Source of the DNA: a virus
Strand: one strand, 5' to 3'
DNA: 64,000 nt
Virus record (IMG/VR): IMGVR_UViG_3300035670_000034
Coordinates: 32,001 to 96,000 of that record
A model generated the notes under the pieces. That model ran no database searches, was not told the origin of the DNA, and saw only the letters and a program-made list of their open reading frames with translations. Every line of letters starts with the position of its first letter. The stretch's first letter is position 1. Positions 47,529 to 64,000 of this stretch are shown here, in pieces. Both the position numbers and the translations under genes were made by a program.

Positions 47529-48795
47529 GTCCCGCACACTTTTGGTCTATGGGGTTGGCAAACGCCTGTTCGCTTACGGCAACGACGAACACTCGTTCGC
47601 ACCCTCCAAATAGCGTCCCGATGAGCGCAAGAGCAACGCTGAACAACACCACGCCCAACCATAGCACAGGTCAAATACACGTCCCGTTTGCCGAAGTGGT
47701 GCGCCACAAACCTGAGTGTGTCGCAGAAATAGTCGCACTCAACGCCATACACGCCCCGTTTGCCATATCAGTCGTGTATCGCAGTCGCAACACGCCGTTT
47801 CACTACGCCCCGTTAGGCGCATAGCATTGTGTGTTGTTACGCATACGCATACGAAGTTGCCCATCACCTAGCCCCGTAGCGCATAGCGTTTCGCATAGCG
47901 CAGCGCAGTCGCATACGCATACGCCCCGTATTCATTAGTCTTTTCGTGTGTGTCGCATACGCATTTCGTATCGCTTGTCGCATCTAGCCCCGTGAGCCAT
48001 AGCCATAGCAACACGCAGGCACACATACACGTCCCGTATGCGCCGTGCGCTGGTGTGTGTGAGCATACGCATAGCCAACCCATAGCCACTATGCCCCGTA
48101 TGTCGCATACGCATTCAGATACACACGCCCCGTTGAGTTTTTCGCAGGCTTCACGGGTGACCTACGGGCATACCCTACCTATGACAACACCACACACCAC
48201 CACGCATCTAGTCCCGTAGGTAGTGATAGGTATTTGTAATCAGTAGTCACGCACCATAGCAAGCCCATACCCCTACCCCTATGTGTGTCGCATCTAGCCC
48301 CGTAAGCACTACACCATAGGGATACCCCCACACCACGCCTACCGTGTGTGGCTTCATCTAGCCCCGTGACGCATACAACCTTTCGTAAAGGACTTGATAC
48401 TTAGCCGCCCCGTGTTTTCGCAAGGCTCACGGGTGGCTTACGGGTGCTTACACCTACCTACACCACTGCCTACACCACACACGCATCTAGCCCCGTAGGC
48501 ACTTGACTACACGCCACCTGCCCATAACCACATTTGGTCGTTGCTGAACATAGGCCCCGTAGTCGCCTATCGCAGTCAAGCGATACGACATCTCGCTTAT
48601 GAGAGTGCTTCACTATGCCCCGTATGGCGTGTGAGAGACTGAACACGGCGCAAGAGCCGTGTGTCTACTTGCGCCCCGCACAACATAGTCGCAGAACAGC
48701 ACTTGTAGACAAACGATAATCAGCCCCGTACAAAACACGGATTTTGAGGGTTTTTTCAGCGTTTTTAGTGCTGTACTCAGCGCACTCAGCCCCGT
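47529..48795 (+). repeat. Non-coding polarised array of 21 G(C/T)CCCG(T) repeats
   Basis: Copies at 47529, 47615, 47681, 47753, 47807, 47871, 47923, 47987, 48031, 48093, 48127, 48211, 48297, 48361, 48407, 48490, 48554, 48617, 48673, 48723 and 48789, all on +. Extended CATCTAGYCCCGT x5. No credible ORF. Confidence 0.85.
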
Positions 48796-48835
48796 GCCAT
48801 AATAAAAGAACCCGATTACACCAAAAAGGACTTGT

Positions 48836-51800
48836 GTGACGCAACTTGGCCCCGAAAACAAAGACATTTACGAAGTTGATGTAAAAGACGGCAACCGTCT
48901 AGGTCGTCGCTTGTCTCGGGGCTTGAGGTCACTATCCAGAAGTGTCGGAAACACGGCAAGGTCGGGACTCGTTGTGGAACCATTTGACCCAAACGCATAC
49001 GACGGTGATGGTGACGGCATAATCCAAGACGGAACACAGTGGGAACGCCCCGCAGTGCTAAGAAGTCAGTCAATACCAAACGCAGACTTGCCCAAAACAC
49101 CTGATGCCGGGACTGAAACAGAAACAGAAAAGACACAAAAAGAGACAAGAAAACTCGTTGACGCAGCAGAGCGAGCCGGGACTCGGATTTCGCCAGAACG
49201 CTCACGGGTGACTACGGGTGGACTACGCAGTACGACAGTAACGCCGTTGCTTGACCCAGAGTGGCGAAGAACAGCAACGCCCCGAGAACTCGCTGAAATA
49301 ATCGTGCCAGACACGCTTGATGAAGCAGACGCACTAGCAGAACAGTTGGCAGTGCCCCGAAGTGCTTATGAAACCGAAGCAGACTACCAAAACGCACTAA
49401 AACTACTCAGAAGAACTCGGGACGCAGAAAGAGCCGCATCCAAGCGTCGTATGGAAGCACTTATCGCGATTTACGAAAAAAGACACCCCAAAACAACCAA
49501 AACAGGCTCGTTTGAGCGGGACCTAAGAGATGACCCTATTGAGTGGGACAAAAACCTCAAAAAAATCTTTGGCGACCAAAATGAGTGGGGCGAACAACTC
49601 GGGGCAACAAACAAACGGAGCGTTGAGCGGGCTCAAATAGAGTTTTTGGTCGCTTACAGAACAGAACTGGAACGGGACCCAGTAACAAACAAAACACTAT
49701 TGGACATAATAAATGAAATAGAAAACGCCTATCGAAACGGAGTGAGGCTCACGCACGGGGCTTTTTGGAGAGACAGTACTCACATACCAATCAGTCCCGT
49801 TGAGTATGTGCTTGCTCGTTTGTTTATGGAACACTCAAACCACCCACAAGACCCGTTGTTCATAACCGGCATTCGGGACGTAGTAACGCCGTCGGGCGAC
49901 ACCGACGCAGTTATCAGATGGGCGACTGAGTTCCTTGATGGATACCAAAGGTTCTACGAAGCACGAAAGGGGTCCCGTGCTCTTTCCAAGCAACAAATAA
50001 AGAACAGAATAGAAGTAGCAATGAACTCTGGGTCAAGAGGAGGCTTTTTCGGGACCCTTTTTGGTAGGGCTATTCCAAACGAACAATACATACAAACACA
50101 CCAAATGGTGGAAAGCAACGACCCTCGGGACCTTGCGCTACTACGGGCACTGTTACAAAGAACGCTAGAACAAAACCCTGAGTTTTTGGAAGCAGTAAGG
50201 AAGTTTGGACACCCGCCTCTCTATGTCCCGCACCGCGCTTACCATTTCATTGCCCCGCCAAGAGAGTTCCAAGAAAAGTTTTTGCTTGTTCCAGAAAGCG
50301 AACTAACGCCATCTGAACTGCGGGACAAACTTATTTCAGGAAAAGAATACGAAAAAGGTTTGCTTGAAGCAATCCGCGCCCAAGAACTCGGAAAAGGAGA
50401 TGTCACGTTCGGGGCAGGTGGACTACTTGGTGTACGGGCGGGACTTGGTGGACAGTATTCATTTCCTGATGGGCAAATAACACTTACCCCAATGCAACTG
50501 AGAAACACAATACTCAACCGCCCCGAGGCTGATGAAAACATAATCAACATGACCGGGACACAAGGCGCATACACGCTTGTTGGAGAACCAGCAATTCTCA
50601 TACACGAATTTGGCCATCACGTTGATTGGACTTTGCGCAACACCTTGTACGGGGCCTTGTGGGAGAGACGCAAGAGGGCTATTCGTGACTTTGCCAACGA
50701 CCCAAATAGAAATACAAGCCCCGACGTGTTCAAAGATTTTGTTCGTCAGCAGATAGTAGATTTTCGTGACGAACTAAAAGGCTTCACGGGCTTGGTAGAC
50801 CCCGATAACCCAAGCAAGTTGTCCGGGGCATCAGATAGACAAAACATTCATAGAAGTCGCTTGAAGTACTTAGGAGTGAACGTCCCCAGACAAGGCCCCG
50901 ACGAAGTTCCTGTTGGTAGTCGTCTGTTTGACCCATCAACGCTAACCGACGAAGAACTAGATGACCAAATAAGGGAAATAGCGGGGCAACTAGATGAAAT
51001 TCACGGAATGGTCGACATGCTGACTGGTCGCCAGCAAATACGACGAATGAAAGAAAACGGCACGTGGCAACGTGGCATCCACCCATCAGAAGGAGACGTA
51101 GGCGATTACGCCATAAACAGCCCCGAACCTTATGTAACTACGCCATACGGAAATAGCAGTGCGATTGAGCGTTTTGCTGAAATAACAGCGTTTGTTTTGT
51201 CCCGCAACGGACAAAAACAGCCTGTTGCGGTGAATAACGCCGCCGTGCGTCTATGGGCTCGGATACTTGGCATAGATGTAGAACCACAAGATGTTGTTTC
51301 TCAGTCCCGTCGCAAAAGACTTCCTTCGGGTGGCTACTCAGACGAAATGGAAGACATAACAAACCGCATACTCTCAGACATAAAGATTGTTGCGCCAGAT
51401 GTTCAGAGGCAGCCAGACGGTCACCGCCCCGGTTTGCAATCATCAACGTCATCATCAGATTTTCGTTTTGACCCAGATGAACGAAGCATGTTGCAGTCCC
51501 GTAGCAACATAGGCTTGGACACAGACCAACGCCTGTACGCACAAGATGAGCCGATAGGCGTTATGGATTTCATGAATAGGCCCCGTGTCTACTCAATAGG
51601 CGACCATCATTTCTACGATAACGAAGTTCGCTATGGCTCGCAGATGAGTTTTGCGATGAGAAAGCGACTTGGAGAACAAGCGGGACGCAGATACATCAAC
51701 AGAAACAGACCCCATCACGGAGATATGGTGCGGGCGATTTCAGCAACGCAGTTTGGACTGTTTATTGACGACCTTCCAACTTACGACACAACTACATCGG

Positions 51801-63557: not shown

Positions 63558-63589
63558 GCTCTTACCTTACAGGCAATAATAGTATTGCG

Positions 63590-63868
63590 CTACAGCCAGA
63601 ACCATGCGGTTTCTCGTGCGGTGCCGAAGGCCCCGTCGGTTTGCTCGCCAAGCCATTTATGCGCTTTGTCTTTGCACGAACTCCCCCTGAATACTTCCAC
63701 GGTTTGCGTGTTCGTCTGCAAGTTTGTAAGGGTTAGGCGACGAACCATGTCGGGGTACAGGGTTCCGTTCTGACGCAAGTCGCCACGCTCAATCTTTACA
63801 CTCCAATGTTCGGCTCGGGGCTCCGCCGCAAGTGCCAAGTTCACTATCTCGACTTTGTTGATGCTCAC
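63590..63868 (-). CDS. Hypothetical protein
   Basis: GTG at 63868 overlaps the upstream TGA. Confidence 0.55.
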   Translation of the reverse strand: MSINKVEIVNLALAAEPRAEHWSVKIERGDLRQNGTLYPDMVRRLTLTNLQTNTQTVEVFRGSSCKDKAHKWLGEQTDGAFGTARETAWFWL

Positions 63869-64000
63869 TTGTCCAGCACCCACTCGATTACTTCGGCTTG
63901 TTCGTCAGTGACATCGTCGGTGAGTGGGGCAGAGAAGTAGTCCTCCAACTGGCCAGTAGCCCACTCGTAGAACTGCTCCATTACCTGCTCAGCCTCTTCA
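63865..64000 (-). CDS. 3' end of an acidic hypothetical protein (partial)
   Basis: EEAEQVMEQFYEW...EWVLDK* is open to the window edge. Confidence 0.5.
   Translation of the reverse strand, partial: EEAEQVMEQFYEWATGQLEDYFSAPLTDDVTDEQAEVIEWVLDK

Follow-up and report, generated by a model that had tools for sequence, protein, structure and literature searches.

A six-nucleotide word confined to one 40-kb domain of an uncultured phage genome, a putative protein recognition site of its early-promoter module

The DNA described here is a stretch of 64,000 nucleotides (the window) that covers positions 32,001 to 96,000 of the IMG/VR virus record IMGVR_UViG_3300035670_000034, a contig of 136,198 bp (G000). 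Its subject is a short word, GYCCCG or, in the other orientation, CGGGRC, which comprises GCCCCG, GTCCCG, CGGGGC and CGGGAC and was counted on both strands. The word is missing from the first 47,528 nucleotides of the window and frequent in the remainder, where a non-coding array, a giant open reading frame (ORF) encoding 3355 amino acids (aa) and the first of about 60 small genes are found. In window coordinates, the features are the following.

1 to 47,528: motif-free DNA with head and cargo genes, the major capsid gene and a module for replication and nucleotide metabolism (Pfam: capsid, RNR, DUF932, primase-helicase, SNF2)
45,013 to 46,983, minus strand: SNF2/HARP-type helicase gene (Pfam SNF2-rel_dom, 2e-27), with no copy of the word in G000
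47,002 to 47,457, plus strand: conserved gene for a 151-aa protein (phrog_13596), which stops just short of the domain edge
47,529 to 48,854, plus strand: non-coding array of 21 GYCCCG(T) copies, with a 22nd at 48,849 just within the giant ORF (sequence read directly)
48,836 to 58,903, plus strand: ORF of 3355 aa with 84 copies of the word, on both strands and in all frames
58,904 to 64,000, minus strand: beginning of the small-gene cassettes (SSB, HDAC-like and other genes), with 22 copies and promoters at 61,169, 62,352, 62,977, 63,217 and 63,564
59,020 to 59,041, minus strand: outermost early-type promoter, with core ATTATTGCCTGTAAGGT and TAAGGT at 59,036-59,041, pointing antisense into the 3355-aa gene

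Between positions 1 and 47,528 the word does not occur at all, against 32.8 copies expected from a zero-order model, and its near-relatives GACCCG (11 copies), GGCCCG (4) and TTCCCG (14) are present there. The following sub-ranges hold 21 (47,529-48,835), 66 (48,836-55,200), 18 (55,201-58,903) and 22 copies (58,904-64,000). These computed values bear out a preliminary description of the same DNA, in which a manual scan had found the relatives and not the word on the left and had given 21, about 66, about 17 and about 22 copies for the four sub-ranges. Over the whole contig 199 copies were counted (128 CGGGGC and 71 CGGGAC), every one of them within genome positions 79,529-119,320, and the remaining ~96 kb contain none. 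The word domain thus spans about 40 kb, or 29% of the contig, and reaches some 23 kb past the right end of the window. When all 6-mers were considered, with words containing GATC or AGCT set aside, CGGGGC and CGGGAC were the only ones with zero copies outside the domain that were yet present inside, and control words of the same composition occurred 11-74 times outside. The left edge is sharp and the density decays to the right, as had been described before; it falls from 16/kb to about 1/kb, and the spacing is under-dispersed. No clear inflection of the GC-skew, which had been suggested as a possible companion of the edge, was seen there.

Both sides of this distribution survive a comparison with synonymous-codon shuffles. 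In the genes outside the domain, no copy was observed against 35.5±5.6 in the shuffled sequences (minimum 23). The 3355-aa gene carries 84 copies against 11.0±3.1 (maximum 19; z ≈ 23) and the small genes of the domain 78 against 25.2±4.5 (z ≈ 12). Amino-acid composition is thereby ruled out as the cause of the pattern. Inside genes the word lies on both strands and in all three frames, and the flanks of the hexamer carry no added information; the earlier claim that it is built from synonymous choices on both strands is upheld by the shuffles and by the frame and strand counts. Among the ~175 copies beyond the array, 98 are on the plus strand and 79 on the minus strand, and the giant gene shows 40:43; a long-range strand skew of the kind known for the guide words KOPS, Chi, SRS and TRS/clt is absent from both counts. 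The word is degenerate at position 2 only, and the preference there (C only, T only or Y) varies by lineage, which is typical of recognition by a protein. Literature searches for this word, and for phage motifs restricted to one region, returned nothing relevant, and megablast of 12 kb against 50,697 phage records gave no match.

Related genomes provide an independent view of the domain. A search with the SNF2 gene yielded 37 IMG/VR loci, from which four relatives (G001-G004) were taken in full; G002, G003 and G004 are fragments of 44-55 kb and G001 is a complete genome of 140.6 kb. A more distant relative, G006, is complete at 160 kb. The independent IMG/VR assemblies have a common gene order, in which the replication module is followed by the 151-aa gene, the giant gene and the small-gene region. 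In G002-G004 the word is confined to the small-gene region and the 3' part of the giant gene, and the replication module is free of copies. Only GCCCCG is used in G003 and only GTCCCG in G001, and both variants occur in G000, G002 and G004. A chimeric assembly or misassembly, which the preliminary description had argued against, is ruled out because the independent assemblies of relatives show the same junctions, gene order and confinement, and GATC and AGCT are absent throughout.

Genes that have changed place between these genomes show that word content follows location and not gene identity. The SNF2 orthologues (75-83% identity) lie inside the domain in G002-G004, where they carry 9-10 copies about 220 bp apart and at shared positions. 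The G000 gene, an 83%-identical orthologue, lies outside the domain and has synonymous non-word codons at those sites. The synonymous differences are TGCCCCGTT versus TGTCCAGTT and CGTCCCGCT versus CGACCAGCA, and the codons affected are those for CPV, AP, RPA, GGA and TGH. In the SNF2 gene of G003, each T-variant copy is converted to the C-variant. The primase block behaves likewise, with 4+1+2+1 copies inside the domain of G004 and none in G000, G002 and G003, where it is outside. Selection writes the word into the coding DNA of the region and strips it elsewhere by synonymous changes.

The small-gene region, whose genes are chiefly on the minus strand, is organized around a repeated promoter. 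G000 has 35 copies of this promoter (core ATTATTGCCTGTAAGGT, mostly followed by a leaderless ATG) at genome positions 91,036-114,192, nearly all of them leftward, and almost every cassette promoter has one to three copies of the word 45-150 bp upstream. By count, 27 of the 35 promoters have a copy at this distance, against 11.4±2.6 when positions are drawn at random within this region (at most 19 over 1000 trials). Within 250 bp of a promoter, 49 copies lie upstream and 8 downstream; the word peaks at 50-200 bp upstream, and the interval from -50 to +250 is nearly empty. The promoter-proximal copies have a preferred orientation, with CGGGRC in the sense of transcription in 23 cases and opposite in 6. 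The copy-promoter distances fall into steps of 50, 58-60, 70-72, 81-83 bp and so on (Rayleigh p 0.0008-0.003 at 10.5-11 bp), with word centres near -51, -62, -74, -85 and further. This geometry is that of upstream activators; phase-dependent repression or polar blocking is equally possible.

The coupling to promoters recurs in the relatives. G003 and G004 use other promoter cores and show the same word peak at -100 to -50, and the promoter-proximal orientation is 21:4 in G006, 14:8 in G004 and 13:7 in G003. In G006, 90% of the 62 GCCCCG copies lie within 78.8-107.1 kb, which makes GCCCCG by far the most clustered 6-mer of that genome, and the 29-31 promoters of G006 (core TTTTGGAAATTTGGTATC) cover the same stretch as the domain. 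An upstream copy is present at 26 of 31 promoters, against 6.7±2.2 upon random placement, and of 57 copies, 43 are found in the 250 bp that precede a promoter and 2 in the 250 bp that follow one. From the proximal copy to the -35 element downstream of it, the distance is 8-10 or 18-20 nt (p = 1e-4). The typical layout of a G006 promoter consists of the ordinary T-run terminator of the previous cassette, AGCCCCG, 17-45 nt, CGGGGCT and the promoter. The arms are invariably AGCCCCG ... CGGGGCT, and 16 such convergent pairs and no divergent pair were found. In still more distant genomes GTCCCG is depleted genome-wide, with 7-16 copies against 55-83 for a reversed-word control. When G000 is set beside G002, G003, G004 and G006, each lineage also has its own near-invariant promoter spacer core (the cores being ATTATTGCCTG, CTAATAACGGA, CATAATRACCGA, GTACTAATGG and GGAAATTTGGTATC), and the hexamer upstream is unchanged. 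Since the cores differ while the hexamer is constant, separate factors appear to recognize the promoter core and the hexamer.

A second repeated promoter-like element, CTTTCCRCCACCGTAGnnGATAGAGA, lies on the minus strand at genome positions 95,217-95,400 (window 63,217-63,400), and about eight more copies occur at genome 97.7, 100.6, 102.0, 103.4, 106.6, 107.9, 112.0 and 112.9 kb (loci L003 and L005). It is followed by a segment of ~70 nt bounded by GYCCCG ... CGGGGC and is located just upstream of a normal cassette promoter. Related cores (TTCCACCACCGT) are also present in G001, G002 and G006. The element may represent a family of small structured RNAs or tandem promoters.

Among the cassettes are the genes for SSB and for a protein of the histone-deacetylase family (minus strand, window 60,211-62,164), and the SNF2 and primase-helicase genes sit among cassette genes in relatives; replication genes therefore appear to move freely in and out of the region. 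The far end of the domain carries a few plus-strand genes, including that of a MoxR-like ATPase. This AAA_5 ATPase and a 517-aa partner occupy a word-free island of 2.7 kb in the domain (genome 114,199-116,471; L005:6199-8471), which G002 and G004 have in common with G000.

At the opposite end, the domain begins behind the 151-aa gene, for which 486 loci with 55-77% identity were found in IMG/VR. The first copy of the array, GAAAAAGTCCCGCA, lies ~85 bp past the stop codon of this gene and is kept in four lineages. An AlphaFold model of the 151-aa protein has a pLDDT of 66, and a Foldseek search returned no match at E ≤ 0.001; a role as nuclease or DNA binder was considered and rejected, the Foldseek rows to a homing endonuclease and a fusellovirus nuclease being weak only. 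All 22 array copies are on the plus strand, with a mean spacing of 63 bp (range 34-86 bp, coefficient of variation 0.22), and they are helically phased: when all pairs within 300 bp of each other are taken together, R reaches 0.47-0.58 at 10.5-10.7 bp and does not exceed 0.21 for other periods. A scan of the array for consensus promoters and terminators gave no convincing candidate, its folding as RNA was uninformative, and an Rfam search of window positions 46.5-64 kb gave no match. Single-orientation arrays also follow the 151-aa orthologue in the loci L013 (spacing ~54 bp) and L061 (~100 bp), and of the 67 loci examined, most have no array. Like the array, the heavy load of copies in the adjacent 10-kb gene is limited to the G000 lineage and a few close relatives.

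In the 3355-aa gene the spacing between copies widens smoothly from ~70 to ~250 bp. Orthologues in relatives have 4-9 copies only, all toward the 3' end. The protein has no Pfam or PHROG family apart from a weak HTH_28 match, and a pattern search for relatives in IMG/VR found none. The outermost early-type promoter has a CGGGGC copy 110 bp upstream in the promoter sense. No start codon lies behind this promoter, which is aimed at the 3' end of the 3355-aa gene, and its antisense direction implies a long antisense transcript across that gene.

Taken with the rest of the genome, the window belongs to a phage with a probably actinobacterial host, to which two WhiB genes and the leaderless starts point. 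The genes left of the edge also include those for a class II ribonucleotide reductase, a WhiB-like protein and a helix-turn-helix (HTH) protein, next to the SNF2/HARP helicase and 151-aa genes. Terminase, portal and HNH genes are located at genome 23-29 kb, about 52 kb away from the array. A cluster of ParB_N, PAPS-reductase-like, ParB_N and HNH genes (genome 19,594-23,278; L001/L002) adjoins the large terminase gene, the two ParB_N-domain ORFs being at 19.6-22.1 kb; it could constitute an accessory module for DNA modification or packaging. A Rad52-like annealase, a Cas4-like exonuclease and SSB are encoded. Pfam scans of ~150 ORFs found no repressor-like or integrase family, with the limit that remote homologues could escape such scans, and among the proteins scanned, families of DNA methyltransferases and of tyrosine or serine recombinases were missing. 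In the genome collection, the only relatives were two short phage-like contigs binned with metagenome-assembled genomes, and none was a prophage. The direct terminal repeat of G001 was discarded as a clue to the physical ends, since its 127 bp equal a k-mer size of assemblers and the contig start is arbitrary.

Some further sequence features concern the genome as a whole. GATC and AGCT are absent from the entire 136-kb contig. Across ~100 related loci, GATC is missing in every relative examined except L025 (68 copies). AGCT is missing only in the closest subclade, and elsewhere it reaches 12-89 copies per locus and 158-499 per complete genome. G001 additionally lacks AGGCCT and TTCGAA. This pattern looks like lineage-specific avoidance of restriction sites. 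Another sequence, TAAATCTAACC, has four exact plus-strand copies against 0.8 expected (window 38,221, 44,304, 47,237 and 47,455), at or near the ends of replication-module genes, and stands behind three consecutive genes in the relative L013. Its function may be that of a processing signal or of a promoter for a different temporal class.

The reading favoured here, to which a probability of roughly one half is assigned, is that GYCCCG is recognized by a single sequence-specific DNA-binding protein, which forms part of the early-promoter module in this family of phages. The drifting second position, an invariant sequence amid varying terminators, the fixed helical face upstream of promoters and the purge elsewhere are best explained by the site of a protein that cooperates with RNA polymerase at these promoters. 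The bound protein would touch or block the polymerase, and it might either recruit it to the promoters on entry or silence these promoters later and insulate the cassettes. Copies in other places would draw the protein away or to the wrong DNA, and would be purged for this reason. The G000 lineage would then have multiplied the word, both into the phased 22-copy array that borders the replication module and into the 10-kb gene beside it. Extra binding capacity for the same protein, as a barrier or a sink, is the most likely contribution of these copies. They could halt leftward early and antisense transcription ahead of the replication genes, or time the switch from early to late expression.

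Several points weigh against this reading. The early status of the small-gene region is inferred from its layout and not from expression. No binder was found: the HTH protein adjoining the primase, judged by its recognition helix, does not co-vary with the C, Y and T classes of the word, and no fold was obtained for the 151-aa protein. The 84 copies in the 3355-aa ORF neither show helical phasing nor lie near promoters; any role given to them is conjecture, and sites that block the polymerase would also block the 3355-aa gene itself. The MoxR-like and 517-aa genes stand behind an early-type promoter and have no copies in G000, G002 and G004. The copies of G001 mark SNF2, the primase block and a giant gene at its 3' end, and its small genes are left unmarked. 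Inverted pairs, which could act as RNA or DNA hairpins, are formed by some copies.

A bolder version, which must be regarded as speculative and rather unlikely, holds that the hexamer is a genome-wide "address code" for a temporal class, read by a regulator that is scarce. The early promoters would be active for as long as there is more regulator than sites to bind it; the giant gene with its 84 copies would serve, together with the array, as a titration sink and polar barrier, and replication would then end the early class without a dedicated repressor. Genes moving in or out of the region would be recoded. Such a regulator may be delivered with the virion as one of its cargo modules, for instance as the sigma-70 region-4-like domain in an 877-aa head protein.

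The alternatives differ in which part of the evidence they account for. The preliminary description had taken the word for a protein-binding signal that marks one genome segment, after the model of matS, parS, Noc, RacA or packaging and ejection sites. A selected word at the DNA level, concentrated in one segment, written synonymously and purged elsewhere, is what was found. The analogy itself did not hold, given the link to promoters, the lack of an array in most relatives and a terminase gene 52 kb away. The array could nevertheless be a packaging (pac), partition or injection-stop site, with the graded copies marking the DNA that is packaged or ejected first or that enters in a first step, as in T5. 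A single orientation, helical phase, a sharp border and a density gradient would all suit this idea, as would the two ParB_N proteins, the PAPS-reductase-like protein and the HNH protein encoded beside the large terminase, one HTH protein with a layout like that of small terminases, and small-gene promoters that all face the array, as transcription-driven entry would have it. It is doubtful all the same, because the word is coupled to promoters in phase and orientation, most relatives lack an array and show a bell-shaped domain around the promoter cluster, and the terminase, portal and HNH genes are far off; the contig ends and the end repeat of G001 are uninformative on the termini. A target of a nuclease or of DNA modification, be it a restriction or defence site or a site of a phage ParB/PAPS-reductase-type modification, would be retained where it has a use and avoided where cutting or marking does damage. 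A hexamer that is asymmetric and has a single R/Y position resembles the site of a Type IIS, IIG or III enzyme, and the absence of GATC and AGCT, the genome-wide depletion of GTCCCG in distant relatives and the ParB_N - PAPS_reduct - ParB_N cluster fit such an origin. Avoidance alone cannot, however, yield a 3- to 8-fold enrichment, conserved even spacing and a helical phase to promoters; under restriction, a phage with ~200 sites open to cleavage in a region it cannot do without would not survive, and a methyltransferase family was not among the scanned proteins. An enzyme target is accordingly considered unlikely.

Two further explanations were considered. GYCCCG and CGGGRC could pair as the arms of RNA or DNA stem-loops between cassettes and act as second terminators, insulators or processing sites with no dedicated protein. 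This is suggested by the convergent pairs of G006, which are followed by T-rich DNA and lie between the previous terminator and the next promoter, by at least seven such pairs in G000, ~44 bp apart, and by 11 of 26 promoter-proximal copies in which the word is predicted to pair as the 3' arm. Hairpins are improbable as the general function of the word, since the arm sequence is invariant whereas the nearby canonical terminators all differ, the 22 array copies have one orientation and no partner, and the 84 copies of the ORF come in mixed order. Moreover, variation is restricted to position 2, though U-G pairs would be tolerable at four positions, the mean folding z-score is just -0.6, and the word stands at either of two distances from the -35 element, one helical turn apart. 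The mosaic structure of the region among relatives, the relocation of SNF2 and primase genes in and out of it, and the presence of the annealase, the exonuclease and SSB might finally be taken to indicate a recombination signal, Chi-like or a cassette-shuffling site in a hypervariable accessory region. Such a signal gives no reason for a helical phase or a fixed orientation relative to promoters, the recombinase families mentioned above were not found among the scanned proteins, and the word positions in SNF2 are conserved across three genomes and are thus not breakpoints, so that this explanation appears very improbable.

If the promoter-linked protein site is real, it offers an unusually clean case of a regulatory word that shapes synonymous sequence genome-wide, being absent from ~96 kb and present every 60-300 bp in 40 kb. 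Orthologues are recoded when their neighbourhood changes, and the relocated SNF2 and primase genes serve as natural experiments. With nothing more than sequence, the word allows the probable early (host-takeover) region to be located, together with the promoters there, across a large family of freshwater phages that are uncultured (486 IMG/VR loci), and the array provides a defined bait for fishing out the regulator. A word of caution also follows: region-restricted k-mers should be checked against promoters before they are read as signals of chromosome architecture.

Several known systems share part of these properties. The matS/MatP, parS/ParB and Noc/SlmA sites likewise cluster in one section of a replicon and are kept out of the remainder. 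They are palindromes of 13-16 bp that occur in tens per megabase and have no link to promoters, whereas the present word is an asymmetric hexamer, reaches 1-16/kb and is tied to promoters. Avoidance of restriction sites, as for GATC and AGCT here, can also leave a short word wholly absent from ~96 kb, but in the other 40 kb the word shows a 3- to 8-fold enrichment, an even spacing and conserved positions. A family of intrinsic terminators or stem-loops would not be expected to show a one-orientation array, invariant arms, a mean z-score of -0.6 and inverted pairs at a minority of sites.

In phage phiC31 the repressor binds conserved inverted repeats (CIRs), 17-bp palindromes with a fixed centre, and there is a family of near-identical early promoters. 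The resemblance lies in the early region of an actinophage with near-identical promoters and many copies of a regulator repeat between genes, and the inverted pairs of G006 are CIR-like. The present elements differ in having two arms of 6-7 bp with a variable gap of 17-45 nt, and in occurring also as single copies, direct arrays and copies in coding sequence.

The closest analogue would be the operators and stoperators of the Cluster A mycobacteriophages, which are bound by an immunity repressor of the L5 gp71 type (PMC9283540, PMC6550527). An L5-type repressor acts as a monomer; its asymmetric sites, which number more than 20, occupy promoters as well as intergenic "stoperators", and their orientation is tied to the direction of transcription (PMC9283540). 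The differences are considerable: the word measures 6-7 bp here and 13 bp there, ~200 copies stand against 20-36, and it is confined to one 40-kb domain and not distributed over both arms. Most G000 copies lie in coding sequence on both strands, a phased 22-copy array is present, Pfam scans of ~150 ORFs revealed neither a repressor nor an integrase gene, and none of the relatives turned up as a prophage. Both systems nevertheless place many copies of a short asymmetric word at promoters and between genes, here in a phage of a probable actinobacterial host. Sites upstream of promoters in a preferred orientation are common to both (27 of 35 promoters in G000 and 26 of 31 in G006), which does not extend to the copies in the 3355-aa ORF. 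As in Cluster A, the specificity drifts among related phages, and a monomeric binder is plausible.

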